This document shows, one piece after another, positions 33,796-56,296 of a stretch of DNA of 64,000 nt. The stretch is taken from positions 3,936,813-4,000,812 of the forward strand of contig OW818666.1 in NCBI GenBank assembly GCA_942493035.1, in the 5' to 3' direction. The translations under genes were made by a program, and so were the position numbers. This stretch comes from an uncultured Spirochaetota bacterium. GTDB taxonomy: Bacteria > Spirochaetota > UBA4802 > UBA5550. The notes under the pieces were generated by a model. It was not told the origin of the DNA. It did no database searches and saw nothing but the letters and a program-made list of their open reading frames with translations. Each line of letters starts with the position of its first letter. The stretch's first letter is position 1.

Positions 33796-35145
33796 TTATC
33801 CTGCGAGTTTTGTGCTTCTTCTCCAAATGTTAAGACGATCTGCCTGTTTTATCATATCCTCTCTGAAATCGGGATGAGCTATTTCTATGAGAGATTCAGC
33901 GCGCTGCCATGTAGATTTACCCTTCATCTGCGCACAGCCGAATTCTGTAATTACATAATGTGTTATTGATCTGGGACATGTGACAATTGTTCCAGATGAG
34001 AAAGTCGGTACTATTCGAGAGTGAACTGTGCCATCCTTATCTTTATAAGTTGAGCTTATACAGATAAGGCCTTTTCCTCCGCGTGAATTAAAAGCACCCA
34101 TAATAAAATCGAGCTGTCCGCCGGTGCCTGATATCTGTCTTGATCCGTTAGATTCTGAAGCAACCTGTGAAAAAAGATCCACTTCAAGCGCATTGTTTAT
34201 TGCCACAACTTTATCATTAAGTCCGATGATTCTCGGATCGTTTGTGTAGTTTACAGGATAGGATGCGCAGACGGGATTATTGTGCATAAAATCGTAAAGT
34301 TTTTTTGATCCCATTGCGAATGTATAAACCATTTTGCCTTTGTCTATATTTTTCTTCTTCCCTGTGATTCTTCCTGCTTCGTACATTTCGACATAGGAAT
34401 CTGCAAGCATTTCTGTGTGGACACCGATATCTTTCAGATCACTCTGTGCTATCATCGAACCGACAACATTGGGGAGTCCGCCGATACCTAGCTGAATTGT
34501 TGAACCATCTTCAATAAGATCCATAACATACTTTGCGATCTCTTTATCGGTTTCTGTAACCGGAGCTGCAGGGAGCTGAATAAGGGGACAGTTGCTCCCT
34601 TCGATAATCATATCCACCTCTGAAATATGTATACCCTCTGACGCACCGCCGAGGCATCTTGGTATGCTTGTGTTCACTTCAACGATAACTTTTACAGCCT
34701 TCTGGCAGTATGCATATCCGATTGAATTAGAAGTTGAAAAATTGAAAAATCCGGTTTCATCCATAGGTGTTACCTGAAGACATACAACATCAACTTTGTT
34801 ATATTTAGCGATGATCTCCGGTCCCTGATGATATGTAAAAGGGATATAATTGACAAGACCCTGTTCTGAATACTTTCTACCCATGCCGGAGAAGTGCCAG
34901 TCGTCCCATGTAAATACAGATCGATCCTTGTCGGCTTCTACACATTTCAGCGGCTTTGCTCTGGTTGTTGTAACGATAATGACATCTTTAAGTTCATTTT
35001 TTCTTGCTGCCAGTGCATTGTCCATTGCTTCGACATTCTGAACAAATTCCCCGAGGAAAACCACATCACCCGATTTCACAATTTTTGCTGCGACATCGGC
35101 TGTCTTTAATTTTTCCTGATATTGTGAGCTCCACATATTTGACAT
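33796..35145 (-). CDS. Acetyl-CoA hydrolase/transferase-family CoA-transferase (4-hydroxybutyrate / butyryl-CoA:acetate CoA-transferase-like)
   Basis: 449 aa; N-terminus MSNMWSSQYQEKLKTADVAAKIVKSGDVV typical of this family; next to crotonase. Confidence 0.75.
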   Translation of the reverse strand: MSNMWSSQYQEKLKTADVAAKIVKSGDVVFLGEFVQNVEAMDNALAARKNELKDVIIVTTTRAKPLKCVEADKDRSVFTWDDWHFSGMGRKYSEQGLVNYIPFTYHQGPEIIAKYNKVDVVCLQVTPMDETGFFNFSTSNSIGYAYCQKAVKVIVEVNTSIPRCLGGASEGIHISEVDMIIEGSNCPLIQLPAAPVTETDKEIAKYVMDLIEDGSTIQLGIGGLPNVVGSMIAQSDLKDIGVHTEMLADSYVEMYEAGRITGKKKNIDKGKMVYTFAMGSKKLYDFMHNNPVCASYPVNYTNDPRIIGLNDKVVAINNALEVDLFSQVASESNGSRQISGTGGQLDFIMGAFNSRGGKGLICISSTYKDKDGTVHSRIVPTFSSGTIVTCPRSITHYVITEFGCAQMKGKSTWQRAESLIEIAHPDFREDMIKQADRLNIWRRSTKLAG

Positions 35146-35234: not shown

Positions 35235-36026
35235 TTATTTTAATTTGAAAGCGGGGGATCTTTTTTCAGTAAAAGCATTCATCCCCTCTTTCTGATCCTC
35301 TGTTGCGAAACATAGCGCAAATATCTGATTTTCAAATATTATAGCAGTTTCTAAATCAGTTTCGATTCCCCTGTTAATTGCCATTTTGGAATATCTCACT
35401 GCTATCTGGGCTTTAGATGCTATCTTTCCCGCCATATCAATTGCCACATCAATAAGATCTTCAAATGGAACAACCTTGTTTACAAGACCGATCTTTGCCG
35501 CTTCACAGGCAGAGATAGAATCACCCGTATAGATCAGTTCTTTTGCTTTTGCTATCCCTACGAGTCTGGGGAGACGGATACATCCTGAATAACCGGGAGT
35601 AATTCCAAGGCTTACCTCAGGCTGACCGAATTTTGCGTTCTCACTTGCGATTCTTAAATCACAAGCCATTGCAAGTTCGCAGCCCCCCCCAAGAGCAAAA
35701 CCGTTAACTGCTGCTATTGTAGGAATTTTCATTTTATCAATTTTGTTAAATACTGATGACCCGAGTTCACCCCAGGCCCGCCCCTCTTCGCTGTTATAAT
35801 TTTTCATTTCGTTTATGTCTGCACCTGCAACAAAGGATTTTCCGTCGCCTGTAATGATAAGTGCATAAACTTCAGAATCATCATTGACCATGTCAATGGC
35901 CTGTCCAAGTTCAATAAGCACCATTGCATTTAAAGCATTAAGCGATTTTGGTCTGGAAATTGTCAGGATGGCCACACGGCCCTCTTTCCGGTATTTGAGA
36001 TTTTCAAATTCATGTTCTGTTTTCAT
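35235..36026 (-). CDS. Enoyl-CoA hydratase (crotonase family)
   Basis: 263 aa; ALNAM...ITGDGKSFVAGADI and GGGCELAMACD crotonase-fold motifs. Confidence 0.9.
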   Translation of the reverse strand: MKTEHEFENLKYRKEGRVAILTISRPKSLNALNAMVLIELGQAIDMVNDDSEVYALIITGDGKSFVAGADINEMKNYNSEEGRAWGELGSSVFNKIDKMKIPTIAAVNGFALGGGCELAMACDLRIASENAKFGQPEVSLGITPGYSGCIRLPRLVGIAKAKELIYTGDSISACEAAKIGLVNKVVPFEDLIDVAIDMAGKIASKAQIAVRYSKMAINRGIETDLETAIIFENQIFALCFATEDQKEGMNAFTEKRSPAFKLK

Positions 36027-36112
36027 AATTTTAACCTTAATATTAAGATTCTGATACTACAAAGGAGATAACATATTAAGGGGGTAATTGGAATAGCCTT
36101 CGTATCTATTGA

Positions 36113-36166
36113 TTTGTGGTCGTATTAATTATTTTTCTGTGGCAGTGTGCGGCATTTGTTTTTTCT
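36113..36166. promoter_or_regulatory. Shared upstream motif, copy 1 (TTTGTGGTCGTATTAATTATTTTTCTGTGG...)
   Basis: 24-nt exact match to 42092-42148; lies upstream of the crotonase operon start. Confidence 0.4.
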
Positions 36167-36238
36167 ATAGAGTTTTGATGAGACTCCAGCCTAAATTATT
36201 AAATTGAAAAAGGTAAAAAATTTCTTGACAAAAATATA

Positions 36239-36266
36239 ATACTATATAGTATATTTCTATATAGAA
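36239..36266 (+). promoter_or_regulatory. Tandem palindromes ATACTATATAGTAT and TTCTATATAGAA in the MarR promoter; candidate MarR operator
   Basis: Perfect palindromes with CTATATAG core just downstream of a TTGACA box (36225-36230), 20-45 nt upstream of the MarR start. Confidence 0.4.
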
Positions 36267-36284
36267 TAAAAAGGATGAGTTCAT

Positions 36285-36731
36285 ATGGAAGAGTATCGCG
36301 GTGGTTTTCTTATAAGCCAAATAAAACAAATGAGTGGCAGATTATTCAATCAGCTGCTTTTAAAGAAGAATGTTGACGCCTTCAATGGAGAACAGGGACG
36401 TATTTTATATATTCTCTGGCAGGAAGATAGCATTACAATCCGGGAATTGGCAAATCGTACCGGGTTGGCTGTTACAACACTTACCAGCATGTTGGATCGG
36501 ATGGAGCAGGCAGAACTTATTGTTCGAAAATCTGACCCCGATGATAGAAGAAAGACATTAATTCAATTAGGGGAAAATGCCAGATCTTTGCAAAAGGATT
36601 ATGAAGAAGTATCCACAGAGATGGGCTCCCTGTTTTATCAAGGATTTAATAAGCAGGAAATACTGCAGTGTGAAAGGTATTTAATAAAAATATTAGAAAA
36701 TATGCAAGAAATAGAACAACAAAAGAAGTGA
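36285..36731 (+). CDS. MarR-family transcriptional regulator
   Basis: 148 aa; winged-helix core ITIRELANRTGLAVTTLTSMLDRMEQAELIVRKSDPDDRR. Confidence 0.85.
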   Translation: MEEYRGGFLISQIKQMSGRLFNQLLLKKNVDAFNGEQGRILYILWQEDSITIRELANRTGLAVTTLTSMLDRMEQAELIVRKSDPDDRRKTLIQLGENARSLQKDYEEVSTEMGSLFYQGFNKQEILQCERYLIKILENMQEIEQQKK

Positions 36732-36738
36732 AGTTTTT

Positions 36739-36861
36739 ATGATTTCTGTATACACCGGTTTCATAATGAGATTTGAAAGAAAAGGAATTATGAATAGAGT
36801 TAGAATACCTGCTGATGGAAAAGTTATTCTCTTTAGTAATAGAATCAAAATAGGAAAATGA
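36739..36861 (+). CDS. Small ORF (40 aa), translationally coupled to the following radical SAM gene
   Basis: MISVYTGFIMRFERKGIMNRVRIPADGKVILFSNRIKIGK; stop overlaps the ATG of the next gene (ATGATGG). Could be a chance ORF. Confidence 0.2.
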   Translation: MISVYTGFIMRFERKGIMNRVRIPADGKVILFSNRIKIGK

Positions 36862-37559
36862 TGGAAAAAATAGATATCAAACAATATATCAAAAACTTAG
36901 ATGCTGTTACGGGGTGCTCGATTGGCTGTAGTTATTGTTATGCCCGAGTTAACAATCAAAGATTTCCTGTTACAGTTGATTTTTCAGTACCGGAACTAAT
37001 AGAAAAACGGTTGAAACGAATCAGCACAAAAACTCCCAACATATATTTGATGACAAGTGCCAGCGATTTTTCCGGCTGGAAGGATGAATGGAGAGGTAGA
37101 GTTTTTGACTGTATGAAGCAGAATCCACAGCATATCTATTTGTTTTTAACAAAACGTCCGGACTTGATAGACTACTTTACAGACATGAAAAATGTCTGGT
37201 TTGGGGTTACGGTAAACAACAATGATGACAAAGCGCGTATTAAGATCATGAGAAAAAATATAAAGGCGTATCGTTATTTTATAACGTTCGAACCTTTACA
37301 TGAGGATTTAGGCAAACTTGATCTGGATGGGATTTCCTGGATTGTGATCGGCACGGAGACAGGAAAAAGAAAAGGAAAGATTGATGCAAGGGCAGAATGG
37401 GTAACGAATATTAGCAGACAAGCCCAAAAGTATAATATTCCGGTATTCATGAAGGCTGCACTTGAAGATGTTGTCAGGGGAGAGAATATGATACAAAACT
37501 TCCCGGATGACTTTAATAGAATATTTAAGCTGAATGGAAAGGAATTGCACTATGGTTGA
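36858..37559 (+). CDS. Radical SAM-like protein, Gp37/Gp68 (DUF5131)-type, SPL superfamily
   Basis: 233 aa; N-terminal CX3CX2C cluster GCSIGCSYCYA. Confidence 0.65.
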   Translation: MMEKIDIKQYIKNLDAVTGCSIGCSYCYARVNNQRFPVTVDFSVPELIEKRLKRISTKTPNIYLMTSASDFSGWKDEWRGRVFDCMKQNPQHIYLFLTKRPDLIDYFTDMKNVWFGVTVNNNDDKARIKIMRKNIKAYRYFITFEPLHEDLGKLDLDGISWIVIGTETGKRKGKIDARAEWVTNISRQAQKYNIPVFMKAALEDVVRGENMIQNFPDDFNRIFKLNGKELHYG

Positions 37560-38448
37560 AAAGATACAGGAGATTCATACAAAAAGTGTTTTGACAAAAT
37601 CAAATCTGCCGATAGCAGGATATTCAGTTAATCCGTATGTAGGATGTCCTCACAGTTGTAAGTATTGTTATGCCACTTTTATGAAGCGTTTTACAAACCA
37701 TACAGAACCATGGGGTACTTTTCTGGATGTCAAGAATTGGCCGCCTATAACCAATCCGAAAAAATATAAGGGAAAAACGATTATTATTGGTTCCGTTACA
37801 GATGCTTATCATCCGTTGGAAGAGAAATATAAACGCACACGGCAATTTTTAGAACAAATGCAGGGAAGCGAAGCAAATCTTATCATAACCACCAAGTCAG
37901 ATTTGGTGCTGCGGGATTTGGACCTGATAAAAACATTTCCCGATCCTCTGGTTTCCTGGTCAATCAATACTCTCGATGAGAATTTTCGCTCTGATATGGA
38001 TTCAGCTTCTTCCATTGAACAGAGGATCGCAGCCATGAAGATCTTTCATGATGCAGGTATTCGAACTACCTGTTTCATCTCACCGATATTTCCGGGGATA
38101 ACGGATGTTCTGGCAATAATCAACAGGATAAAAGATCAATGCGATTATATATGGCTTGAAAACTTGAACCTGAGAGGAGATTATAAATCTGTCATAATGA
38201 ATTATATTGAAAGTCGTTATCCTGATTTAGTTCCGTTATATAAAGAAATCTATCAAAACAAAAGCAGACAGTATTGGGAGGAATTGAATAATCAAATTGC
38301 TTCTTACACAGAACAGAATGGTTATTTATATCTTATTAACGAAGAACCATTTCAAAAAAATTCAACTGGAAAACCGATTATCATCAACTATTTTTACCAT
38401 GAAAAAATCCGGCAAACTGCTAAAAAAATAACACCTCAAAAATTCTGA
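37552..38448 (+). CDS. Radical SAM protein, spore-photoproduct-lyase (SplB/COG1533)-like
   Basis: About 298 aa from ATG 37552 (AAGGAA SD); N-terminal CX3CX2C cluster GCPHSCKYCYA; overlaps the previous gene. Confidence 0.75.
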   Translation: MVEKIQEIHTKSVLTKSNLPIAGYSVNPYVGCPHSCKYCYATFMKRFTNHTEPWGTFLDVKNWPPITNPKKYKGKTIIIGSVTDAYHPLEEKYKRTRQFLEQMQGSEANLIITTKSDLVLRDLDLIKTFPDPLVSWSINTLDENFRSDMDSASSIEQRIAAMKIFHDAGIRTTCFISPIFPGITDVLAIINRIKDQCDYIWLENLNLRGDYKSVIMNYIESRYPDLVPLYKEIYQNKSRQYWEELNNQIASYTEQNGYLYLINEEPFQKNSTGKPIIINYFYHEKIRQTAKKITPQKF

Positions 38449-38562
38449 GTTAAAACAATCAATACACAATATTCGACTTCTCTTGTTTCTATAATTTTTA
38501 ATCATACTGTTTCTTTGACATTCCTTTTTATAGATTAATACCATAAAGTATTTAAAAAATAG

Positions 38563-38610
38563 TACTATATAGAAATAAAATTACTTGACGAATAATATTA
38601 CTATATAGTA
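38563..38610 (+). promoter_or_regulatory. Two copies of the CTATATAG-core palindrome flanking a TTGACG box
   Basis: TACTATATAGA (38563-38573) and TACTATATAGTA (38599-38610), same motif as the MarR promoter operators. Confidence 0.35.
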
Positions 38611-38647
38611 CTGTTTTATATAGTAATATTATGGAGGTGTCTTTTAA

Positions 38648-38863
38648 ATGGATGATTTACAGTTAAAAAGAATAAGTAGCGACTTATTGAAAACTGCGGA
38701 GGTGGCATATTTATAAACGATAACTGGTGATGGTTTTCCTGAAACACGCGGATTATTAAATCTTAAGAATGAAAAGCAATTTCCAGATTATACATTACTA
38801 AAGATGAAACCGACGGTTGTAAAAGGGTATCATCAGGGCAATACTTACAAGTTGGAATTTTAA
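38648..38863 (+). pseudogene. Remnant of a pyridoxamine 5'-phosphate oxidase-like (PPOX/general stress protein 26) gene with in-frame TAA and truncated 3' end
   Basis: MDDLQLKRISSDLLKTAEVAYL*TITGDGFPETRGLLNLKNEK... reads like a PPOX-family N-terminus, interrupted by TAA at 38714-38716 and ending after about 70 codons. Confidence 0.35.
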
Positions 38864-38940
38864 AAAACACATATTTAGTGTTATTAAAACTACAGCATAA
38901 AATTTAAATTTATTTAAAATTAATATAACAGGAGAATAAG

Positions 38941-39330
38941 ATGAAAGGACAACAAGTAATTGAAACTTTTTATGAAGCTTTAGCAAAAGGAGATGTTCCA
39001 ACAGCATTTTCATTTTTTACAACAGATGTAAAGTGGAATCAACCAGGAAGTAATAAATTTTCAGGTATTAAAAACAATCCTGATGAAATTGGAGCTATGT
39101 TTGGTGAAATGTCGGCAGTCACAAATGGTACTTTGCTTATAGTTCCCAATGGTCCGTTGATGGTAAGTGGTGACTTGATAGCTTGCCCGGTAAGATTTAC
39201 CGGAAAAAAAGGGGATAAGAGTATGGATTTGACAGGACTTGACCTGTTTGAAGTGAAAACCGGCAAAATCACCCAGGTCTGGCTTTTCACTGAAGATCAA
39301 AAGAGCGAAGATGATTTCTGGGGGAAATAA
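38941..39330 (+). CDS. NTF2-like / SnoaL-like small protein
   Basis: 129 aa; N-terminus MKGQQVIETFYEALAKGDVPTAFSFFTTDVKWNQPG typical of the ketosteroid-isomerase-like fold; AGGAG SD. Confidence 0.55.
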   Translation: MKGQQVIETFYEALAKGDVPTAFSFFTTDVKWNQPGSNKFSGIKNNPDEIGAMFGEMSAVTNGTLLIVPNGPLMVSGDLIACPVRFTGKKGDKSMDLTGLDLFEVKTGKITQVWLFTEDQKSEDDFWGK

Positions 39331-39404
39331 AATATTATTCAAAAATCTGAATACTTTGTAGAAATGGCGTTGAAACTCTCTGTGTGATATCACAGATTAC
39401 TGTT

Positions 39405-39441
39405 TAAAAAAGAGAGCCGCTGAATTAGCGGCTCTCTTTCA
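39405..39441. terminator. Rho-independent terminator, bidirectional
   Basis: AAAAAAGAGAGCCGCTGAATTAGCGGCTCTCTTTCAC between convergent genes. Confidence 0.65.
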
Positions 39442-39462
39442 CAAAAGTATGACAGTAAAATA

Positions 39463-40659
39463 TCAGTAAGTGTAGTTATATTTTCCATCTTTTGTAAGAT
39501 ATTTACCTATAACCATTCTCTGCACCTGAACTGTACCTTCGAATATCTGCATAATCTTTGCATCTCTCATGAATTTTTCTGCGGGATACTCTTTTGAATA
39601 TCCGTAGCCGCCGAAAATCTGCACTGCATCAACTGTGTTTTTCATAGCAGTATCTGCTGCGTACATTTTAGCCATGTTTGAGAGCATTTTAAAAGGGAGA
39701 CCGTTATCCTGAAGCCATGCAGCTTTCTGATAAAGAAGTCTGGCTGCTTCGGTAGTTGTGGCCATGTCAGCCAGCATAAAATGTATTGCCTGGAATGATG
39801 AGATCGGTTTTCCGAACTGTTTTCTTTCGTTTGAATATGCAAGCGCTGCGTTGAGTGCACCGGTTGATATACCTGTAGCCATAGCTGCAACAGCTGTTCT
39901 TGAGTAGTCAAGAGTCTCCATAAGTATTGCAGTTCCATTCCCCTCTCCGCCGATACACATCCAGCCGGGAACTCTTACATCATCAAATATTACTTCAGTT
40001 GTACTTGTGCTTCTAATACCGAGTTTATCCTCTTTGTTTCCGATTTTGACACCTGGAAAATCCCGGTCTACCATGAAGCAGCAGATACCCTTATTGCCGA
40101 GACTTTTGTCTATAGTGGCAAAAACAGAAAACTGTTTTGCGAATCCGCCGTTTGTAATAAACTGTTTTGTTCCGTTAAGAATCCAGTCGTTTCCATCTTT
40201 TGTGCATTTCATTGACATTCCAAGAGCATCGGATCCTGCACCCGGCTCTGTGAGACAGAACGCGCACATTGCACCTTCAAGCATTCTTCCGAACCACCAT
40301 TTTTTCTGCTCGTCATTTGCTCCAACCATAATCGGATCGGCAGCGAGGAGTGAAGATGCAACAACGGTTGTTGCTATTCCGGCATCTCTCTGTCCCAGTT
40401 CGTCAATTACTGTGTATCTTGTGAGGTTGTCAAGTCCCTGTCCGCCGTATTCTCCGGGAACTCCTATGTTTGTTAGACCAAGATCGTGCATTTTTGCAAG
40501 TACATCCATTGGAACTTTGTCTTCATGATCCCACTGACCGGCGAAGGGTTTGATCTCTTTGTCGGCAAACTCAGCAGTCATCTGCCTGATCATCTCCTGC
40601 TCTTCTGTAAGTCTGAATCCGAATCCGCTCTCTACCTGGCTGCTTATTACTGTATTCAT
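39463..40659 (-). CDS. Acyl-CoA dehydrogenase (butyryl-CoA dehydrogenase-like)
   Basis: About 398 aa from ATG 40659 (AGAGGA SD; the track extension runs through a repeat); ACAD N-, middle and C-terminal domain features. Confidence 0.9.
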   Translation of the reverse strand: MNTVISSQVESGFGFRLTEEQEMIRQMTAEFADKEIKPFAGQWDHEDKVPMDVLAKMHDLGLTNIGVPGEYGGQGLDNLTRYTVIDELGQRDAGIATTVVASSLLAADPIMVGANDEQKKWWFGRMLEGAMCAFCLTEPGAGSDALGMSMKCTKDGNDWILNGTKQFITNGGFAKQFSVFATIDKSLGNKGICCFMVDRDFPGVKIGNKEDKLGIRSTSTTEVIFDDVRVPGWMCIGGEGNGTAILMETLDYSRTAVAAMATGISTGALNAALAYSNERKQFGKPISSFQAIHFMLADMATTTEAARLLYQKAAWLQDNGLPFKMLSNMAKMYAADTAMKNTVDAVQIFGGYGYSKEYPAEKFMRDAKIMQIFEGTVQVQRMVIGKYLTKDGKYNYTY

Positions 40660-40689
40660 TTTTATTCCTCTTTTTACTATAAATTTTAA

Positions 40690-40726
40690 ATATTCCCGCC
40701 GCCTTTGGCGGCGGGAATAATAGAGC
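40690..40726 (+). repeat. Hairpin-repeat family B copy
   Basis: ATATTCCCGCCGCC-TTTG-GCGGCGGGAATAATAGAG between the thiolase stop and the acyl-CoA dehydrogenase start. Confidence 0.5.
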
Positions 40727-40738
40727 ATTTATTTTTTA

Positions 40739-41941
40739 TTAAATTTTTGTTGTCCAGAGTGATGCCATTGCAGGTCCTGTTCCAACACAGAGGGATGCTC
40801 CTCCGTATGAATAGCCTTTTCTTTTCATTTCATAAAGAAGAGTAACAATCAGTCTTGCCCCTGTGCATCCTATCGGGTGGCCAAGTGCAATTCCGGAACC
40901 GTAATGATTTACTTTATTCAGATCAAGATCAAGATTGTGGTCAATTTTCAGTTTTCTCTGGCATCCGATAAATTGCGGAGCAAAAGCTTCATTTATTTCC
41001 CAGTAATCAACATCATCAAATTTAATTCCGGTTCCTTCCAGACATTTCGGGATTGCTTCAGCAGGTCCTATTCCCATGATCTCAGGTTCAACACCGTATG
41101 AACATACATTCATGAGCTTACCAAGAGGTTTTAGTCCAAGCTTTTCAGCTCTGCTTTTTGACATAAGTACAAGTGCAGCAGCTCCGTCATTTATACCTGA
41201 TGCGTTAGCAGCTGTAACAACTCCGCCGTCGGGTTTAAAAGCAGGACGGAGTTTAGCCATTGACTCAACACTTGCATCTGGAATGAAGTGTTCATCCTTT
41301 GCGAATACTGTGGTGCCTTTTTTAGTTTTAATCTCTACGGGAACAATCTCTTCGTCAAACACACCTGATTCTACAGCCTTTGCTGCTCTCTGATGGCTTA
41401 GCAGCGCCAGGTTGTCACACTCTTCACGTGTAATATTATATTTAACTGCAACATTTTCAGCTGTGAGTCCCATGTGTCCAGGAACAAGTGAATCGAAAAG
41501 TGCATCGTGAGTTAGCGCGTCAACAAGTTCTCCGCTTCCCATTCTATAACCGTTTCTGGCGCCTGGAAGCATATAGGGGACGGCCGACATATTTTCCACT
41601 CCAACAACAAGAGCGATCTCTGTTTTTCCCAGCATGATATTGCTTGCAGCAATTTCCATTGCCCGCATTCCTGATGAACAGTTCTGATTCACAACCATGG
41701 CGGAACTTCTGAAAGGGAGTCCGCATGCAAGTCCGACGATTCTTGCAGGAAGAGAATTCTGCATATGCTGGTAAACCTGACCCATTACTATTTCATCGAT
41801 GCTTTGAGAATCAATTCCCGCACGTTTAATCGCTTCCTTTCCTGCTGTTACAGCAAGATCTTTGGCAGTTACATCTTTCAGGGATCCTAAAAATTTACCT
41901 ATAGGTGTTCTGCATGCTCCAACTACTACTACTTCATTCAT
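40739..41941 (-). CDS. Acetyl-CoA C-acetyltransferase (thiolase)
   Basis: 400 aa; thiolase active-site Cys context and C-terminal signature GGASLCVGTGPAMA; GGAGG SD. Confidence 0.9.
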   Translation of the reverse strand: MNEVVVVGACRTPIGKFLGSLKDVTAKDLAVTAGKEAIKRAGIDSQSIDEIVMGQVYQHMQNSLPARIVGLACGLPFRSSAMVVNQNCSSGMRAMEIAASNIMLGKTEIALVVGVENMSAVPYMLPGARNGYRMGSGELVDALTHDALFDSLVPGHMGLTAENVAVKYNITREECDNLALLSHQRAAKAVESGVFDEEIVPVEIKTKKGTTVFAKDEHFIPDASVESMAKLRPAFKPDGGVVTAANASGINDGAAALVLMSKSRAEKLGLKPLGKLMNVCSYGVEPEIMGIGPAEAIPKCLEGTGIKFDDVDYWEINEAFAPQFIGCQRKLKIDHNLDLDLNKVNHYGSGIALGHPIGCTGARLIVTLLYEMKRKGYSYGGASLCVGTGPAMASLWTTKI

Positions 41942-42091
41942 AAATAGCCTCCATTATCTAATTATTAAAAACGGATTGCCTTTTGTATTCGAAGCGGTAC
42001 AGCTTCGACAATGAGTCTTTAAATAATTTAAAATCATATAAAGAGAGATAAGGCATAAAAAGTATTAATGCAATAGCCGTCATAGAGGGAG

Positions 42092-42148
42092 TTTTGTGGT
42101 CGTATTAATTATTTTTTTGTGGTGAGAGGGGTGCAGCGGAATTTTTTT
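42092..42148. promoter_or_regulatory. Shared upstream motif, copy 2 (TTTGTGGTCGTATTAATTATTTTTTTGTGG...)
   Basis: 24-nt exact match to 36113-36166; upstream of the thiolase / acyl-CoA dehydrogenase operon. Confidence 0.4.
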
Positions 42149-42385: not shown

Positions 42386-43477
42386 ATGAAATTTTATTCC
42401 ATACTGATCCCGCTATTGATTATTCTTTCTGTAACAACATTGCCTTTAAGGGCTGTTTCCGAAGAAGAATCGGATAAAAAAATTTTAACCGAAGATAATG
42501 CCGCATTAAATATTTATGGAGGATATAATTTATCATATTGGAAAATAGTCCCCAGTATATTTTTTGAATTCAGTTATAATAATGAACCGTATAAAATAAA
42601 GCAGTTTGGTATAAAAACAAATTATTCATTATTCTCTTTTGGATTAGAATATAACAACAGCAATATATCTTTCTCCAACGCTTTTAATTTAGATGAAAAT
42701 AATGAAGAAAATCGGAGCCATCTTGCCGAACAGTTGAAAATATTTAACGGATTATCATTTGGAAATCTGTCAATATTCATCTCAGCAACGTATCAGAAAT
42801 TCAACACTACTGCAACTTCAAGTCAGGAAGACGATATTAACTATTATTCGAAAAATGACGGATTAATAATAGTTAAAGAGTACGACACAATTGAGTGGTT
42901 CACTAAATATTCAAAATACGATCTTAGATTTGATTATTCAACATCCGATGCCGGAATTTTCAGTTTGGGTATAAGATATATGAATTATGAAGCTCCAACC
43001 GAAGTTGATATAAGTAAACAGAATTCAACTACCAGCGGTAAAATTATACTCTTCACAAAAAATAAAATAATCGATCCATATTTTGGAATTACTTTAAAAA
43101 ACCGGTTTTCAGACAGCTTCTATTCTTTCTTTTCTGTTTCAGGGAGTATGCTGCTTACATCGTACTATCCTGAAAGTCAATATTTCGATATAGCTTACAA
43201 TAATCCTTTATCATTTGAATCTTTTTCTATTACGGGAATCTACACTTGCAGTTATGCATTTCATTTAACCGGAGAGCACTATAGAATTGAAACCGGTATT
43301 AAAGCAGAAGTATTCATGGCATCTTTATCATACGACAGTACGCTTGAAGATGATATTACCGCCAGAAGCCAGACAGGTACACCAGTTGTGTTTAATACCG
43401 GTGATGAAGTTGAACTGAACTTCAGCAGAACCGAAGTATTCTGGGGATATTATATAAAGGCATCATCATTTTTTTAA
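42386..43477 (+). CDS. Hypothetical secreted protein, possible outer-membrane beta-barrel
   Basis: 363 aa; signal peptide; N/Y/S-rich; C-terminal aromatic residues (SSFF). Confidence 0.4.
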   Translation: MKFYSILIPLLIILSVTTLPLRAVSEEESDKKILTEDNAALNIYGGYNLSYWKIVPSIFFEFSYNNEPYKIKQFGIKTNYSLFSFGLEYNNSNISFSNAFNLDENNEENRSHLAEQLKIFNGLSFGNLSIFISATYQKFNTTATSSQEDDINYYSKNDGLIIVKEYDTIEWFTKYSKYDLRFDYSTSDAGIFSLGIRYMNYEAPTEVDISKQNSTTSGKIILFTKNKIIDPYFGITLKNRFSDSFYSFFSVSGSMLLTSYYPESQYFDIAYNNPLSFESFSITGIYTCSYAFHLTGEHYRIETGIKAEVFMASLSYDSTLEDDITARSQTGTPVVFNTGDEVELNFSRTEVFWGYYIKASSFF

Positions 43478-43805
43478 TTATTCAATTTTATCTACGGATT
43501 TTACAGGCATCACGGACCAGCTTATCCTCTTAATAATTTAAACAATTTCAGAGTTTTTAAATTATTTTTTAGCCATTGAATATTCCGAAGATAATGAGTA
43601 GAACTGTATGCAGACAATTTTTACACTCCGGATCAGGAATGCTGAAGGAGCAACTCACTTGTTTTTGAAGATATCCCGAAAAGTATATGATACTATTATG
43701 TGTTTAACATTCCTCCCTAAATTGAAAATAAAGTATCATCCTTGACAAATACTCTTTAACAAGACTGCATTAATCCAGTAAAAATAATCCTCCAAGGATG
43801 AATAA

Positions 43806-45995
43806 ATGCGAATTTTTGCTACAGCTATCCTTTTCTGTATCCTAACTGCCGTATCGGCAACTTCCGTTAATTCGGCACCGGCTGCAGTGCAGGGAGTGCT
43901 CGACTTGAGGAGTTTCAGTTTCACAGATAACAATATAGCGGATATCACCGGTGAATATCTTTTTTATTGGGATAAGTTCGTCAACTATGAAGATCTATTT
44001 CTGGAAAGCAGCGGTGGAGAAATATTCTCCGGACCGAGGCTCTGGAACTGGAAGGAAGGGGATAGTAAACTCTATCCTGCAATCGGCAAGGGAACATTTG
44101 CAGTTAAAATACTTCTCCCCGAAGGACATCCACGTCTGGCCGTACGAACAGATACAGTCTTCAGTGCGTATACACTTTTTGCTGACGGAAAACCGGTTAT
44201 AACAAAGGGGACTCCAGGAAACGGAGAGTCAACTTCAATCCCGTACATCTGCCCTGATTATGCAGTGATAGACAATTCCACTCCAGAACTGATACTATCA
44301 TTTCATATATCCAACTATCATGCAGAGTGGGGCGGATTCTGGGAGCCGGTTAAGATCGGAAGTGAGCGTGCTATCCGCAATGAGTGGATATCATCACTTA
44401 CAAAAATATATATCCTTTTTGGAGCTTTAATTATTATGGCGTTATATCATATAGCCATATTTGTTCTGCGAAGAGACGACAAGGCGCCACTCTATTTTGC
44501 TCTTTTCTGCATCCTGATGGCAGCAAGAGCAATAACTATGGATCAGAGACTGATTACTCATTTAATCGGAGGATTTAACTGGAGGATTCTGAGAAGTCTT
44601 GAATACTTTGGTCTTTTTATGGGAGTCCCGGTTTTTGTACTTTTTCTTTACTCTCTGTTCCGGGAATGTGTCTCTCTGAAATTTGTGCGTGTGGTAATCT
44701 ATACCGGAACGGCTTTTACCTTTCTCGAGATAATCAGAATACCATTTATATATCCTTACCTGCTTAATTTATTTCAGGTACTACTTCTTGTTACATGTAT
44801 TTATTTTGTATATGTTCTCATTATTGCATTCCGGAAAGGTTACGACGGGGTTATTATTTTTTCATCAGGACTTGCAATATTTCTGGCGACAATAATTAAT
44901 GATCTGCTGCATTCGATATCAGTAATCAACACAGGATACTACGCTCCTTTTGGTCTGATGGGATTTATGCTGTCACAGGCATATCTTCTCTCCCGGAGAT
45001 TTTCAAAAGCATATAACACCGCAGAGATCCTTAGCGAAGAACTTCTTATAGAAAAAAAATCACTGCTGGATCTTGTTGAAAGGATCAGGCTTTCGGTGAC
45101 TGAGCTTAATGATTTTTCAGGAATGATAAGAAAAACGGCAGACACACTTCAGGCTAAGATGGAAATACAGGGGAGCACACTTGTGGAGACATCAGCCGCA
45201 ACAGAAGAGGTCAGCGCTTCAATAGCATCCATTTCGGATAAAACTATGGAACAGAATGATATAGTTCACCAGACAATTCCGGTTTTGAATGAATATCTTG
45301 CAGGTTTGAAAAGAATTATAGATGCATCTTCACGGGCAGAAACTCTTAGTATTGAAAACACCCGCCGTACTGAAGAGAGTGCAGTGAAACTCAATGAAAT
45401 CATAAAGGGAATGGAGGATATCCGTATCTCATCGAATGAGATTAGCGAAATAACTGATGTTATAAATGAGATTGCTGAAAAGACAAATCTTCTCTCTTTA
45501 AACGCGGCTATCGAGGCTGCCCGCGCCGGAGCTTCAGGCAGGGGATTTGCTGTTGTTGCCGAAGAGATTGGTAAGCTGGCTGACCTTTCGATAACTCAGT
45601 CTAAATCGATTCATTCACACATTCAATCGGCTGTGTCAAAAATTGAGGCCGAGATTAAGATTGTTTATGACTCGGAAATAATTATAAGAGGGATAGGTGT
45701 TGATGCCGGGGCCGTACTTGAAAGTGTAAGATCAATAGGATTGCTCTGCAGTGATCAGGAGAAAAAGGCATCTGCTCTTCGAAAAGGCTCAATTGAAATT
45801 ACAGGCGGTTCCGAGGTGATAACCCAGGCTATGAGTGAACAGAAGATAACTGTATCTGAAGTAGCTAAGGCCGTAGAACAACTTAACGAGATTATGTTCG
45901 ATGTAGTTGAAAGTGTTTCCGTGCTGATGGATTCACTGGTGGTACTTAATTCACAGACGGGCGCTCTCTCAAAGATGGTTGAGGAAAAGATTTAA
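43806..45995 (+). CDS. Methyl-accepting chemotaxis protein with 7TMR-DISM-type sensor
   Basis: 729 aa; signal peptide, extracellular domain, seven-TM block, C-terminal MCP signalling domain ([31 protein letters not shown]). Confidence 0.85.
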
Positions 45996-46048
45996 TTTAA
46001 AATCAGTAATTACACCTAAATATAATTTTTAGAGTAAAAGGCAAAAAA

Positions 46049-46120
46049 ATATATCCCCGCCGCCATTGGCGGCGGGGATAATAGAGTTTTGTTACTTTAG
46101 AAAAGTTAAGGAATAAATAC
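46049..46120 (+). repeat. Hairpin-repeat family B copy
   Basis: ATATATCCCCGCCGCC-ATTG-GCGGCGGGGATAATAGAG, then TTTAGAAAAGTTAAGGAATAAATAC. Confidence 0.55.
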
Positions 46121-46211
46121 TGATTTAAACTGTATTTATTGATTATTTTTTGCCAAATTTGTAATGAATATATTGAATCTAAAATAGAAAATACTACAAA
46201 CCGGGGGATCG

Positions 46212-47345
46212 ATGTTAAAACGAACCGCAATGATTTTTCTGTTACTCTCTGTAACCTGTTTTTTTTCCTGTGATTTTGAGAAAAGCGGATCATCTGAAAA
46301 AGATCAGAAGTCACGCCCGTTTCTTATGGGATTCACTCCATGGCCCTATGATGCAACAATCGAAGCTGTCGACTGGTCGTATGAAAAGATCAATGAAAAC
46401 GGGGATATTATCTCGCACCACATGGAAGAGGGTGTCCCATGGCAGGAATCTTTTTCCGGCTCAGACTTTCCAGCCGAACTTATTTCAGAGATTGAATCCC
46501 GCACAATAAGATATATCGACGGTAAAAAGGTTCTGCTCTCGGTATCCCCTCTTAATATGGCACGGGATGGAATGGCTCTCAACCGCGGTTCATCAGAAAG
46601 TATGCCTCTGCCTGCGCCATGGAATACATACGCTTTGAACAGTATTGAGGTCAAAACTTCATTTTTAAATTACTCGAAGAGAATGATTGAATATTTTGAT
46701 CCCGATTTCCTCATCATCGGGGTTGAGGTTAATCTTCTTATCCGCAACACGCCTTCTCTCTGGCAGCAGTATCTTGAGCTTCATCGCTATGTATATACTG
46801 AATTGAAAAAATTTTATCCATCATTGCAAATCGGTGTTTCTGTCGTCTGCACCGCCTACTTCCCGGAGTGGTCATCTGAAGATAATATTGATGATCAGTT
46901 ATCGGGACTTGAAGATCTCGATTCTTCAATTGATTTTCTTGCGTTCTCGGTGCATCCGTTTATGAGTGCATTGACAGCTGAATCTTTTCCGGACGATTAT
47001 ATGCAGAGGCTCTTTGCTCTAACAGATAAACCGGTAGCTATCTCCGAGAGCAGTTATCCCGCGCAAAGTTGGCAGACAATAAACGCCCCAATAATTGATT
47101 TTAACGGTACACCTGAAAAACAGAAGAATTTTGTTTCGCTTATGCTGGAACAATCGGCCGAATCAAATGCGTTATTTGTTATCTGGTTTTCTATTCGTGA
47201 TTTTGATGCACTATGGAACGGTCTCCTGAACCAGGATGCGCTCTCACTCATCTGGCGCGACACTGGATTATATGATGAACAGGGAGATGGACGTTTAGCG
47301 CTTGATACCTGGACAGACTGGTTTGATATGGGAGTATCAGAGTAA
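46212..47345 (+). CDS. Hypothetical lipoprotein, possibly glycoside-hydrolase-like
   Basis: 377 aa; lipobox FFSC; acidic and aromatic-rich soluble domain; family assignment uncertain. Confidence 0.4.
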   Translation: MLKRTAMIFLLLSVTCFFSCDFEKSGSSEKDQKSRPFLMGFTPWPYDATIEAVDWSYEKINENGDIISHHMEEGVPWQESFSGSDFPAELISEIESRTIRYIDGKKVLLSVSPLNMARDGMALNRGSSESMPLPAPWNTYALNSIEVKTSFLNYSKRMIEYFDPDFLIIGVEVNLLIRNTPSLWQQYLELHRYVYTELKKFYPSLQIGVSVVCTAYFPEWSSEDNIDDQLSGLEDLDSSIDFLAFSVHPFMSALTAESFPDDYMQRLFALTDKPVAISESSYPAQSWQTINAPIIDFNGTPEKQKNFVSLMLEQSAESNALFVIWFSIRDFDALWNGLLNQDALSLIWRDTGLYDEQGDGRLALDTWTDWFDMGVSE

Positions 47346-47414
47346 TGAACAATAGCGGGAGCGAGGCTGACTTTTTAAATCATTTTTTAAATTCATTGAA
47401 GGACTGAAGATTAT

Positions 47415-48374
47415 ATGAAAAAATTTTTAATCGTTACTATCTTTTTACTGACATCATTTAATTCCGGTATAGCGGAAACAAATGATCAATCAATAGATTA
47501 TTTTGAAGATAAATTTACTGTCCGTACATCTATTAAAAATTCTTTCCTGCAGTTCAGAATTATTGATCCTGATCAGGAAGGAGAAGATATTAAATATTTA
47601 CCCAATGTGAAAACAGCAATCAGCGCATTAATTTATTACGAATCGTTCGCCTTATCGGTTTCAAAGGATTTTAATCTAAGAAATGATGAAAAAAAGGGGG
47701 ACACTGAATACTATGATTTCCAGCTGTATTATTTTACAGAAAATTTAGGCTGTGAATTATATTACCAGAGATATAAAGGCTACTATCTGGATGATCCGGA
47801 AAACTTCGGTTATGTTGCTGGAGATTCTAAAACAATAAGATCCGATATAAGTACATCTCATCAGGGATTGAATATCTACTATATATTTACTGATGCTTAT
47901 TCTATGAACGCCGCAATGAATCAGGGGGAGAAGCAGAATGAATTGAAAGGTTCATTTATGATAATGGGTTCATTTAATCGTGTAAAGCTGGATAGCAGCT
48001 ACAGTTTAATTCCTGAGAATCAGCATATATATTATGATGAAGATTCAAACTATACTGGCGGAAAATATTTTACACTTTCAATTTCACCCGGTGCGGGAAT
48101 TATTATACCTTATGAAGATATTTTTGCTTCTTTTGCTGTCTTTATAGGTTATGGAAAGTCATATAGTGAATATCAGAATCTTGATGACCGGCAGACAGGT
48201 GTTGATAATGTTCTGAAAGTTAATATGAAGTTTTCAGCCGGTTATAATGCTGATAATCTATTTTACGGAATTGTCTGTAATTACGATGCAACAAATTTAG
48301 TAGAAAATGAAAATCAGTTCGAAAATTCGTTTGAGGCGGGATTTGTAGAGTTATTTTTAGGTACGCGCTTTTAA
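47415..48374 (+). CDS. Hypothetical secreted protein, possible outer-membrane beta-barrel
   Basis: 319 aa; signal peptide MKKFLIVTIFLLTSFNSGIA; Y/G-rich alternating pattern; C-terminal F. Confidence 0.4.
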   Translation: MKKFLIVTIFLLTSFNSGIAETNDQSIDYFEDKFTVRTSIKNSFLQFRIIDPDQEGEDIKYLPNVKTAISALIYYESFALSVSKDFNLRNDEKKGDTEYYDFQLYYFTENLGCELYYQRYKGYYLDDPENFGYVAGDSKTIRSDISTSHQGLNIYYIFTDAYSMNAAMNQGEKQNELKGSFMIMGSFNRVKLDSSYSLIPENQHIYYDEDSNYTGGKYFTLSISPGAGIIIPYEDIFASFAVFIGYGKSYSEYQNLDDRQTGVDNVLKVNMKFSAGYNADNLFYGIVCNYDATNLVENENQFENSFEAGFVELFLGTRF

Positions 48375-48533: not shown

Positions 48534-49202
48534 TCACTCCTCAGTCTTCTGAACCCATTTGATTGCGTATGATAAAAGCTCATTCGATGATGAAATATTC
48601 ATCTTCTCTTTTATTCTTTCCCTGTATGTTCCGATTGTATTTACATTAAGATTTAATGACTCGGCTATATCTTTCCTTGTATATCCTTTCCCGATGAGCC
48701 GGAAAATTTCCAGCTCTCTCCCTGTGAGCATTGATGCTGGATCATCATCGATATTTTTCTTTCCGGCCTCTCCACCCTTGGCCAGAAAATTGCTCAGCAG
48801 CCGGTCATTCATACTCTCGCTTATATAAATCTTTCCGGAGATAATCTGCCGGATGGCGGTTGTAACCTGTCCGGACATCTCCTGTTTCATTATATATCCT
48901 CTTGCTCCGGTGACCAATGCCCGTTCGGCATAAACTTTTTCATCATGCATCGATAGAACCAGTGAAGGTATGTTCAGATTGTTGTCCTGAATAAATTTGA
49001 TCAGCTCCAGGCCGCTTGTATCCTTCAGAGTAATATCCGCGATGACAAGATCCGGTTTTAGCTGGCGGACTTTATGTGTCGCGGAAAAAACATCTTCAGC
49101 CTCGCCGCAGACCTCCATGTCAGATTCTTCGTTGATCAGCTGGATAAGCCCTTTTCTGAATATGGGGTGATCATCAACTATAAATATTCGTAATTTCTTC
49201 AT
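48534..49202 (-). CDS. Response regulator, NarL/FixJ (LuxR HTH) family
   Basis: Receiver domain (IFIVDDHPIF...) plus C-terminal LuxR-type HTH (LTGRELEIFRLIGKGYTRKDIAESLNLNVNTI); ATG 49202 with GGAAGGA SD. Confidence 0.9.
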   Translation of the reverse strand: MKKLRIFIVDDHPIFRKGLIQLINEESDMEVCGEAEDVFSATHKVRQLKPDLVIADITLKDTSGLELIKFIQDNNLNIPSLVLSMHDEKVYAERALVTGARGYIMKQEMSGQVTTAIRQIISGKIYISESMNDRLLSNFLAKGGEAGKKNIDDDPASMLTGRELEIFRLIGKGYTRKDIAESLNLNVNTIGTYRERIKEKMNISSSNELLSYAIKWVQKTEE

Positions 49203-50982
49203 ATGTTTTTTCCTTCCAGTCCCACTCATTTTTCTTATTGTTAATTCTTGGAAATTTCAGAAGTATCTCTGTTCCCGATCCGGGATTGCTGTTTATATCA
49301 AGTGAACCGCCGATTGCCCTTGCACGATATTTCATCAGCTCAAGTCCTATTCCCGGGGATGATATTTCATTCTCATTAAATCCTTTTCCGTCATCTTCTA
49401 TGGATAGATAAATGTTGTCTTCATTTGAAGAATACGTTATGATAATGTTTTTAACCTCACCATGTTTAACCGCATTATTGACTGCTTCCTGTACAATGTA
49501 GTACATATTTATTGCAACCTGGCTGTTATATATTCTCACATCCATATTGAAATTATGAAAAATACAATTTATAGCAAAAATTTTTTCTGTTTTATTTATC
49601 AGATCGGTAATGGCAAAGCTCAGTCCATTCTCCTCAAGTCTTACAGGGCATAGACCTCTGGCAGTGACTCTTGCTTTTTCATGAGCCTCCTGAAGGTATG
49701 CGTGTATCTCCTCTGCAATTTTAACTTCAGGATTATTCTGATTCTTCAGCCGTTTTAAAAGGAGTGAACACATTGCTTCTATTCCCACAAGGTGCTGTCC
49801 CAGGTCATCATGCAGGTACTGACCGATTTTATAGCGTTCACGACTGGCTGCAGTCAGTACCTCTTTTTCAAGCTGTATCTGGTCCGTTACGTCGTAACCT
49901 ACCCATATTATACATTTCTCAGACTGAAGCTCAATAATTTCAGCTGCAATTGATACTGTTCTTATACCATTAATTTTTGAATACATCTGAGTTACGTAGC
50001 TTCTGAGTTTACCCTCTTTAATAAGTTCGTTGATAAATCTGTTCCTGTCTTCCCGGTCTGTAAAAAATTTTATATCAGTTGATGTGTTGCCGATGAGCTC
50101 CTCTTTCGAGTAACCTACAAGTTTTGTATAACTTTCGTTAACGTCAACGTATCGTCCCTCTTTGAGAGTTGTAATGGAACTGGGTGCAGGACTTGCGTGA
50201 AAGGCTTTTGAATACTTTTCATCTGAGATGCGGAGTTTCTGTTCTGTTATTTTTAATTCGGTTATGTCTGAAAACATGAACATGCACCCTACAACTTTCT
50301 TGTTCAGATCAAAAAAAAGTTTCGGCGATGCAATAACATGAAAAATCTTATCATTGGTTTTTATGCTGTCAAATTCAAGATATGGTGGAAGCATATCCGG
50401 TTTATTTTTCATCCAGTAGAGCCATTCATCGACTATTTTACTGTCGAAGAATTCTCGGATATGTTTTCCCAGAATATCCTTTTTATCCACACCGGCCATT
50501 TTGCATATTTCTGTAGAGGCCAGTTTGATGATACCCTCCCTATCATGGAAAGCAACAGCGTCTTTGAGATTATCAGCTATTGACCCGATAATAAGCCCGC
50601 CGTCATGGAGCAGTCTTTCAGGAGCCATTTGTCCTGTTATGTCATAAAATGTCGCATAGTAACAACGGCGTTCACTGTTATACGATATGGTTGCAGAGAT
50701 CAGTTTTCTCGGATTTTTATCTTTTATTGAACACCAGAATTTTCCCGATGGGATACCATTCATGCTGCCGAAAACTGCTGCATGTTCAAGGGGGGTGTAG
50801 GGATAATCATATATTATCAGATCGTGCCAGTGTTTGTGAATTACATTTGCAGGGGAGAGGCCTGATATCTTTAAAAATTCTCTATTACATTTTAATACTA
50901 TAAGATCACTATCGAGAATTACTGTTGCCAGTCCCGATTGTACTTTAAATAAATCATCACTGAATAAATAATCAGAATTCAT
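49174..50982 (-). CDS. Cytoplasmic PAS-domain sensor histidine kinase (HisKA_3 / NarL-partner type)
   Basis: PAS regions, then H-box YLHDDLGQHL and HATPase_c; 3' end overlaps the response-regulator start by 29 nt; ATG 50982 (track start is TTG). Confidence 0.8.
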   Translation of the reverse strand: MNSDYLFSDDLFKVQSGLATVILDSDLIVLKCNREFLKISGLSPANVIHKHWHDLIIYDYPYTPLEHAAVFGSMNGIPSGKFWCSIKDKNPRKLISATISYNSERRCYYATFYDITGQMAPERLLHDGGLIIGSIADNLKDAVAFHDREGIIKLASTEICKMAGVDKKDILGKHIREFFDSKIVDEWLYWMKNKPDMLPPYLEFDSIKTNDKIFHVIASPKLFFDLNKKVVGCMFMFSDITELKITEQKLRISDEKYSKAFHASPAPSSITTLKEGRYVDVNESYTKLVGYSKEELIGNTSTDIKFFTDREDRNRFINELIKEGKLRSYVTQMYSKINGIRTVSIAAEIIELQSEKCIIWVGYDVTDQIQLEKEVLTAASRERYKIGQYLHDDLGQHLVGIEAMCSLLLKRLKNQNNPEVKIAEEIHAYLQEAHEKARVTARGLCPVRLEENGLSFAITDLINKTEKIFAINCIFHNFNMDVRIYNSQVAINMYYIVQEAVNNAVKHGEVKNIIITYSSNEDNIYLSIEDDGKGFNENEISSPGIGLELMKYRARAIGGSLDINSNPGSGTEILLKFPRINNKKNEWDWKEKTYEEITNIYS

Positions 50983-51079
50983 TGTATTTACCAATTGATA
51001 TACTTAGGCAGTTGCCGGTTGAAAAATGTCAATATTAATTAAGCATACAATTAATAGTTATGAAGTTTAATCACGAAAT

Positions 51080-53910: not shown

Positions 53911-54013
53911 GGGAGAATAATATTTATAAAATATTTTTTATTAAGGGAATTTTTTAAAAATTTCTCTGCTGCTATCGTATTCATATGTAAGAAATATTAT
54001 TAAGGAATTTAAA

Positions 54014-56174: not shown

Positions 56175-56296
56175 TCATTCACCTGTTATTTAACCTGAAT
56201 TAAACTTTGTAATGAAATATCTCTGTTCAATATAATAGTTTAATTTTTATCCGGTAATTATTCCTAAATATAATTTTTATTGTAAAAAACAAAAAT

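Follow-up and report, generated by a model that had tools for sequence, protein, structure and literature searches.

In Clostridia, the thl, crt, hbd, bcd and CoA-transferase genes of the Rex-controlled butyrate (bcs) operons are co-regulated through a common upstream motif, the Rex box, which is a repressor operator with the palindromic sequence TTGTGAAnnnnTTCACAA. For other systems, different site layouts have been described. The ACTU motif of CrbR, located at -52 to -36, is an imperfect inverted repeat of 17 bp whose half-sites read TACGAC or TACTAC (PMC5715377). For its activation the RpuR-dependent mctP promoter of Sinorhizobium fredii requires an imperfect direct repeat between -80 and -43, and it has no recognisable -35 box (PMC9100948). 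Here we describe a repeated promoter element from an uncultured Spirochaetota bacterium. It lies in a 64-kb window (the whole stretch of DNA analysed: 64,000 nucleotides, positions 3,936,813 to 4,000,812 of contig OW818666.1, assembly GCA_942493035.1), where one copy precedes a thiolase (thl) and acyl-CoA dehydrogenase (ACAD) operon and the other precedes a crotonase (crt) and CoA-transferase operon. We consider it probable, if well short of certain, that this 24-30-nt repeat is the upstream half of an activator-type promoter module of about 80 nt, and that a neighbouring NarL-family response regulator is its binder. In the mechanism that we propose, the phosphorylated regulator of a PAS/HisKA_3 two-component system (48534-50994) would bind the upstream block and recruit RNA polymerase to a poor core promoter. 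The thl-acd and crt-CoA-transferase operons and, elsewhere in the genome, bcd and hbd would then be switched on together.

The sequence TTTGTGGTCGTATTAATTATTTTT (24 nt) occurs as two exact copies in the window, at 36113-36136 and 42093-42116, and no third copy was found there at up to three mismatches. None of 100 dinucleotide-preserving shuffles gave a 24-mer match. On the 3' side of each copy a C or T is followed by TGTGG, so that 29 of 30 bases are identical, and similarity between the copies extends over 78 nt at 73% identity (36065-36142 versus 42045-42122; repeat family D11). The repeat is real and far beyond chance. A first-pass annotation of this DNA had reported an identical 24-nt motif about 90-150 nt upstream of two minus-strand acyl-CoA operons, and exact match searches together with Pfam gene calls bear this out: both first genes are on the minus strand, and 87 nt (crt) and 152 nt (thl) separate the 24-mer from the start codon. 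Of the two positions it gave, 36113 is right and 42092 is one base off (42093). It had also described the motif as non-palindromic and as no obvious Rex box. We agree on both points, as neither copy has dyad symmetry and the Rex palindrome was absent on inspection of both.

The 24-mer belongs to a longer, ungapped arrangement. Read in gene direction, 28 unique sites have in common the layout YYAC(A/T)-N2-AAAATAATTAAT-NC-GACCACA-N18-(C/T)TA-TTGnnn-N17-TAnnnn. Profile R1, a sequence-only profile built from 30 related sites, recovers the whole module at both places in the window. Its next-best match elsewhere in the window scores 8.8 bits, and it adds no new site from 320 kb of related loci (designated below by L numbers). 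The parts of the two modules are as follows.

36064-36143, minus strand: whole module before the crt and CoA-transferase gene (profile R1, 70 bits, E=6.8e-21)
36113-36142, minus strand: crt upstream block CCACAGAAAAATAATTAATACGACCACAAA, the 24-mer motif on the gene strand
36088-36096, minus strand: crt CTA-TTCCAA block with the putative -35 hexamer at 36093-36088, a fixed 18 nt downstream of GACCACA
36065-36070, minus strand: putative crt -10 hexamer TATCTC, assigned by the TA spacing
42045-42123, minus strand: whole module before thl-ACAD (profile R1, 62.9 bits, E=1.1e-18)
42093-42122, minus strand: thl upstream block CCACAAAAAAATAATTAATACGACCACAAA
42068-42076, minus strand: thl CTA-TTGCAT block with the putative -35 hexamer at 42073-42068
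42045-42050, minus strand: putative thl -10 hexamer TATCTC, assigned by the TA spacing

Each upstream block has an A/T tract flanked by two ACCACA-like hexamers, which point in the same direction and are 23 bp apart. For crt these are the distal CCACA at 36142-36138, the AT block AAAATAATTAAT at 36135-36124 and the proximal GACCACA at 36121-36115; for thl the same parts lie at 42122-42118, 42115-42104 and 42101-42095. Downstream, TA follows TTGnnn after exactly 17 nt in 26 of the 28 unique sites and after 16 nt in the other two, and TA was part of no search pattern. This gives a -35/-10-like pair at the 17 +/- 1 nt spacing of sigma-70 promoters, with weak hexamers, and a consensus scan (at least 9 of 12 matches) found no canonical sigma-70 promoter before crt or thl on the minus strand. 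TTGnnn-N17-TAnnnn is therefore best taken, provisionally, as a weak sigma-70-type -35/-10 pair. With this assignment transcription would start near 36058 for crt, with a leader of about 32 nt, and near 42038 for thl, with a conserved leader of about 97 nt, and the upstream block would lie at about -86 to -57, or at about -84 to -55 in the crt module. Because the block is upstream of the -35 hexamer and the hexamers are poor, activation is the more plausible mode of action.

The 18-nt spacer and the leaders are conserved within each operon class and differ between classes, so the copies must be old and separately maintained. Not all sites have the same block. Motif variants include AAAATAATTAAT..GACCACA, AAAATCAATTTATTGACCACA and ATAATACTCTTTTCGACCACA, and the diverged sites L026b, L036, L037, L038, L039 and L040 keep AAAAT...ACCACA-N18-(C/T)(T/G)ATT(G/C) and the -35/-10 spacing while the AT block varies.

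Other assignments of the conserved blocks were tried and rejected by inspection. Alternative hexamer pairings (TTAATA as -35; ACCACA and CTATTG as -35 and -10; TAGTAT or TATCAT as -10), the sigma-28 consensus and the Bacteroidetes TTTG/TAnnTTTG pattern were either inconsistent across the site classes or wrongly spaced. Sigma-54 promoters have GG and GC elements 10 nt apart (TGGCAC-N5-TTGCA); in the alignment TTGCA is present and no GG stands at the required distance on the gene strand.

The leader predicted for thl (41942-42038, minus strand) is highly conserved across relatives. Pairing of TTAAATTATTAAAAGAC with GTTTTTAATAATTAAAT can give it a long stem, rich in AU, whose end is just 5' of a GGAGG ribosome-binding site; no covariation supporting the stem was found. 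The conserved stem, and the fact that conservation runs on into the leaders, would suit an explanation in which both operons share a transcribed RNA element, such as a leader, riboswitch or small RNA, and the motif belongs to it. We regard this as very improbable. An Rfam scan of 35.0-43.5 kb gave no match at E<=1 near either copy, nor did a scan of the whole window at the gathering score. Furthermore, the A/C-rich block has no consistent pairing partner across the site classes, and the DNA upstream of it is unconserved; in L002 a terminator lies about 35 nt upstream of the block, leaving no conserved promoter from which such an RNA could be made.

To see how widely the motif occurs, a collection with one genome per species (596 Gb) was scanned with the pattern AAAATAATTAATNNGACCACA. 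This returned 19 stretches, 13 of which are in Spirochaetota, Spirochaetia or Leptospirales metagenome-assembled genomes (MAGs). All 13 are upstream of, and co-oriented with, thl-ACAD, crt-CoA-transferase, a 387-aa ACAD (bcd), 3-hydroxybutyryl-CoA dehydrogenase (hbd) or a CoA-transferase gene, and all 13 have CTATTG exactly 18 nt downstream, though the pattern did not demand it. The remaining six matches are in other phyla and lack the CTATTG block; about four would be expected by chance for 19 specified bases. Single MAGs can carry three different sites, before thl, crt and hbd in AMR_MDS_3846 and before thl, crt and bcd in Co_metawrap_2586. A metagenome scan in which the CTATTG block was also required gave further sites of the same classes and one chance match, L033. 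The diverged loci extend the list of targets to MaoC-hydratase and acyl-CoA synthetase genes.

In the window, in the 320 kb of related loci and in the pattern scans, the element is found before, and co-oriented with, several related operons only, as expected of a regulon operator. The first-pass annotation had suggested a shared promoter or operator for co-regulation of a butyrate-type pathway and had proposed a genome-wide motif search for a regulon. The scans of genome and metagenome collections traced the element to this spirochete lineage only, always upstream of C4 acyl-CoA genes, and the element is kept in relatives and recurs before bcd, hbd and CoA-transferase genes, all in line with that suggestion. 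The proposal that the motif marks a regulon for a butyrate-type (C4 acyl-CoA) pathway in one clade of uncultured Spirochaetota is well supported.

Two further loci show other arrangements. In L017, from a Mesobacillus MAG, the pattern is matched by chance within tandem (G)ATTAATTCGACCA units (about 4970-5060) that are unrelated to the spirochete module. In L035, a more distant relative, thl and crt are divergent (7622-8000). The crt side has the full module. On the thl side there are instead two copies of TGACCACA, and a perfect 8-1-8 palindrome, ACACCGATAATCGGTGT, is fused to one of them; these thl-side sequences may be a variant or a second regulator site.

The candidate regulator and its partner kinase are encoded upstream of the thl operon.

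48534-49202, minus strand: NarL/FixJ-family response regulator (REC and GerE helix-turn-helix domains), candidate regulator
49174-50994, minus strand: histidine kinase with PAS, HisKA_3 and HATPase domains, candidate sensor and partner of the regulator

The regulator is of a generic NarL/DevR/VraR type. Its best NCBIfam match is MctR, at 142.6 bits and far below the cutoff, and its best solved relatives are DevR, VraR, NarL and DesR. Kinase and regulator co-occur with the module in L003, L005, L007, L009, L010, L012, L013, L026 (twice), L027, L028 and L034 as well as in the window, and in L003 and L005 the pair is directly upstream of the thl module. Orthologues of the regulator directly precede a module in L003, L005, L009, L010, L026, L038, L039 and L040. 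In L007, L012 and L027 kinase and regulator are inside a module-driven bcd-kinase-regulator-CoA-transferase operon, which suggests autoregulation. The association extends to divergent loci: regulator orthologues of 67% (L038), 63% (L039) and 59% (L040) identity all have YCGACCACA-N18-(TTATTG or TGATTC)-promoter within about 170 nt after the gene, and in L039 and L040 the genes downstream are a MaoC-type hydratase pair and an acyl-CoA synthetase. As the chance of the 8-mer is about 0.3% per such stretch, its presence in all three is not chance. The connection of regulator and block rests on this genomic linkage, and the binding is putative. No module motif was found before the kinase-regulator genes of the window.

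Another two-component system was considered and rejected as the regulator. It is of OmpR type and is found beside hbd in L024 and L031, unlinked to the module at other loci. In these two loci, which come from one MAG, the module-driven hbd is followed by genes for an OmpR-type regulator, a kinase of 482 aa and a membrane protein of 399 aa.

Several observations weigh against a NarL-family activator acting at a sigma-70 promoter. Regulators of the LuxR/NarL group are usually described as binding inverted repeats (PMC5715377), and the block, with its direct repeats 23 bp apart, has no dyad symmetry. Two hexamer half-sites do not account for the near-invariance of the 12-nt AT block. Most sites were found by exact patterns, so invariance at the searched positions is partly ascertainment; when the diverged sites L026b and L036-L040 are included, only AAAAT...ACCACA...TATTG is truly constant. 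Most of the -10 candidates (TATCTC) lack the usual T at -7. Linkage is also incomplete. About 6.4 kb separate the thl module of the window from the kinase and regulator; in L001, L002, L036 and L037 the two-component genes are not within 8-10 kb of the module, and L036 and L037 have a GAF-HisKA kinase nearby instead.

The loci without the two-component genes in their 8-10-kb flanks would fit an alternative in which the pathway does have the module as its conserved cis-regulatory site, but with an unlinked transcription factor (activator or repressor) as the binder and the two-component system as a mere neighbour. A long, non-palindromic, AT-rich site is, moreover, atypical of NarL-type dimers (PMC5715377). 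Set against this are the YCGACCACA-N18-promoter arrangement directly after the regulator gene, which persists in orthologues down to 59% identity and even where the targets differ, and the presence of kinase and regulator within the module-driven operon of L007, L012 and L027. A simple repressor would also be ill-suited to a site upstream of the -35 hexamer of a weak promoter. We consider an unlinked factor a doubtful explanation, yet the most serious competitor to activation by the linked NarL-family regulator.

The length of the near-invariant sequence raises a further possibility, that the blocks form a promoter of their own, used by an alternative sigma factor (with ACCACA as -35 and CTATTG as -10) or another non-canonical polymerase. 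Two invariant blocks at a fixed distance of 18 nt, and a long near-invariant sequence that recalls dedicated promoters, would be consistent with this, as would the occurrence of TAATACGAC, which matches the T7 class III promoter over its first 9 nt. A third element, the TA that follows TTGnnn at a constant 17 nt, suits a downstream -35/-10 pair instead. In addition, a spacer of 18-20 nt is long for extracytoplasmic function (ECF)-type promoters, sigma-54 spacing (GG-N10-GC) is absent by inspection, the 'AC' of TAATAC varies among sites (TC, CC, AT), and no linked sigma or polymerase gene was seen in the related loci examined. An alternative sigma or polymerase promoter is thus improbable. Less probable still, and very much a long shot, is the stronger form of the idea, in which a dedicated alternative sigma or polymerase specificity factor, not an ordinary response regulator, reads the near-invariant 21-30-nt block; if it were true, these spirochetes would possess a promoter class private to their butyrate pathway.

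The genes that follow the two modules are listed below.

40739-41941, minus strand: thiolase, first gene of the thl-ACAD operon (Pfam Thiolase_N and Thiolase_C)
39463-40659, minus strand: acyl-CoA dehydrogenase (ACAD) (Pfam), with its probable start at the ATG at 40659 and a ribosome-binding site before the ATG
35235-36026, minus strand: crotonase (enoyl-CoA hydratase), first gene of the crt/CoA-transferase operon (Pfam ECH_1)
33796-35145, minus strand: CoA-transferase, butyryl-CoA:acetate type (Pfam AcetylCoA_hydro and AcetylCoA_hyd_C)

The best NCBIfam match of the CoA-transferase is TIGR03948, with 562 bits, below the cutoff of 674.8. Since a ribosome-binding site precedes the ATG at 40659 and the ACAD of relatives is 398 aa long, the true start of ACAD is probably this ATG (398 aa) and not the open reading frame start at 40728. 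A GC hairpin, TTCCCGCCGCCAAAGGCGGCGGGAA, with AT-rich flanks occupies 40660-40738 (minus strand), between the thl stop and the probable ACAD ATG, and the mechanical open reading frame start falls inside it. Relatives have only about 30 nt between thl and ACAD, so a hairpin like a repetitive extragenic palindrome (REP) appears to have been inserted within the operon of the window.

The first-pass annotation had offered, as its other explanation, that the two copies are direct repeats bounding an integrated segment of about 6 kb, and had proposed a comparison with related genomes lacking the MarR/radical SAM cassette that lies between them.

36285-39330, plus strand: 'radical SAM mobile pair' cassette (MarR, pair protein A, pair protein B) and a SnoaL-like gene (NCBIfam)

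In this cassette TIGR04470 is above its cutoff, and TIGR04471 and TIGR04472 are best matches below theirs. It sits between the ACAD terminator and the crt module. The closest crotonases are 82-94% identical and come from uncultured Spirochaetota; four related contigs (L001, L002, L003 and L005; crotonase 82-93% identical) were compared. In L002, L003 and L005 the genes are contiguous as thl-ACAD-(220-270 nt)-crt-CoA-transferase, with no MarR/radical SAM cassette, and L001 has a different cassette in the ACAD-crt gap. The cassette itself is a real insertion and is absent at the same position in L002, L003 and L005. All four contigs have the motif before thl and again before crt (gene strand CCACAaAAAAATAATTAATACGACCACAAA), and the module core is invariant amid diverged intergenic DNA, as expected of a phylogenetic footprint. 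In L002 the terminator hairpin of ACAD lies about 35 nt before the crt copy, which requires a new transcription unit to start at that point.

As both copies are kept in the cassette-free relatives, they predate the cassette and are not insertion boundaries, and the proposal of an integrated segment between direct repeats fails. One copy does abut the MarR/radical SAM cassette, and different cassettes occupy the DNA immediately upstream of the module, twice in the window and also in L001, which could suggest integration repeats (a target-site duplication or att) or a generic dispersed repeat. Yet relatives without any insertion have both copies, and the operon-specific flanks (N18 and leader) show orthologous conservation between genomes. 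The cassette ends 2.6 kb short of the right-hand copy, and the syntenic thl-ACAD genes are part of the 6 kb from one copy to the other. A target-site duplication or att pair would flank the insert directly and be single where the insert is lacking, and neither is seen. It should also be noted that the genome and metagenome scans place the element before acyl-CoA genes only. The window holds just two copies in 64 kb, whether counted at three mismatches or by profile, and those of relatives are all before pathway genes, unlike a dispersed REP or miniature inverted-repeat transposable element (MITE). An origin as integration or dispersed repeats is, in our judgement, scarcely credible.

The second of the insertions in the window, relative to L003 and L005, is at 42386-48374, between the response-regulator gene and the thl module. 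It carries four plus-strand genes, which encode a 363-aa protein of unknown function, a 7TMR-DISM chemoreceptor, a 377-aa protein of unknown function and a DUF4421 protein. A repeated ATAATACTATATAGTA...TATATAG element with a palindromic CTATATAG core occurs at 36236-36264 and 38595-38623. The first copy overlaps a strong promoter, TTGACA-16-TAGTAT (36225-36252), that belongs to the MarR gene, and the second is upstream of the SnoaL-like gene; the element probably serves as the operator for MarR in the radical SAM mobile-pair cassette.

Other repeats in the window are of different kinds. Intergenic repeats around the hairpin ATATATCCCCGCCGCCGAAGGCGGCGGGGATAATAGAG lie at 4190, 8313-8448, 19812, 45995-46129, 56244-56378, 59929-60030 and 62891-63026 (families D2, D4 and D10). 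Five copies of the ATATATCCCCGCCGCCGAAGGCGGCGGGGATAATAGAG family have about 140 nt of conserved flanks, and the family may be a terminator with its flank or a small mobile element. At 53460-53950 there are four tandem 123-nt units, each with a GGGGCGAATGATTATTCGCCC hairpin, and related units are at 54310, 54642 and 55079. The 123-nt units are upstream of a TGT/methyltransferase gene (51330-53381, minus strand) and had no Rfam match in the window scan, which did find a TPP riboswitch (RF00059) at 59273-59370 (minus strand, 73 bits).

As a regulon promoter module the element is new and undescribed, but it is familiar in kind and implies no new kind of mechanism. For butyrate-type acyl-CoA metabolism it defines a concrete and testable regulon in a clade of uncultured Spirochaetota represented by MAGs, with the ~80-nt module, a candidate PAS-kinase/NarL-type regulator, thl-acd, crt-CoA-transferase, bcd and hbd as its parts. 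Pathway genes in MAGs can be annotated with the help of the module, which might also find use as an inducible promoter or as a part for biosensors, provided that the signal is a short-chain acid. Repeats beside a mobile cassette are easily mistaken for integration scars, and the analysis corrects that view. A literature search for a two-component butyrate regulon in Spirochaetota found no report.

Among the systems described at the outset, the Rex regulon of Clostridia covers a comparable set of genes; unlike the Rex box, the spirochete copies are non-palindromic. Known NarL-type binding sites, such as the NarL heptamers, are also unlike the spirochete block. MctS/MctR and the NarL, DevR, VraR and DesR regulators have the same REC and GerE helix-turn-helix architecture and a HisKA_3 partner kinase. 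The NCBIfam matches of the spirochete regulator are all far below the equivalog cutoffs, and its membership is accordingly at superfamily level only.

The closest parallels are CrbS/CrbR and RpuS/RpuR, whose regulators act immediately upstream of weak promoters. In the CrbS/CrbR (MxtR/ErdR) acetate-utilisation system of Gammaproteobacteria, as is proposed for the module, a LuxR/NarL regulator activates short-chain carboxylate genes at a site just upstream of a sigma-70 promoter, and the ACTU motif is common to several operons of one pathway (PMC5715377). In sequence the sole resemblance is that of the ACTU half-sites TACGAC and TACTAC to TACGAC and TACTAC in the spirochete element. The module differs from ACTU in symmetry, in position, in target genes (acs/actP for ACTU) and in the domains of the kinase: the spirochete element is a non-palindromic block of about 30 nt with direct repeats, in contrast to the ACTU inverted repeat, and CrbS is an SLC5/STAC hybrid kinase, whereas the spirochete kinase has only PAS, HisKA_3 and HATPase domains. 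Against the ErdR model the spirochete regulator scores 48.8 bits, for a cutoff of 390. RpuS/RpuR is similar in layout, with a direct repeat upstream and a regulator gene that neighbours the target (PMC9100948). It differs in lineage, in its SLC5/STAC kinase, in its pyruvate symporter target and in serving a single promoter as opposed to a multi-operon regulon. By analogy, then, the spirochete module would resemble the CrbR and RpuR systems in the way it works and is a member of neither, since symmetry, position, kinase type and lineage differ.

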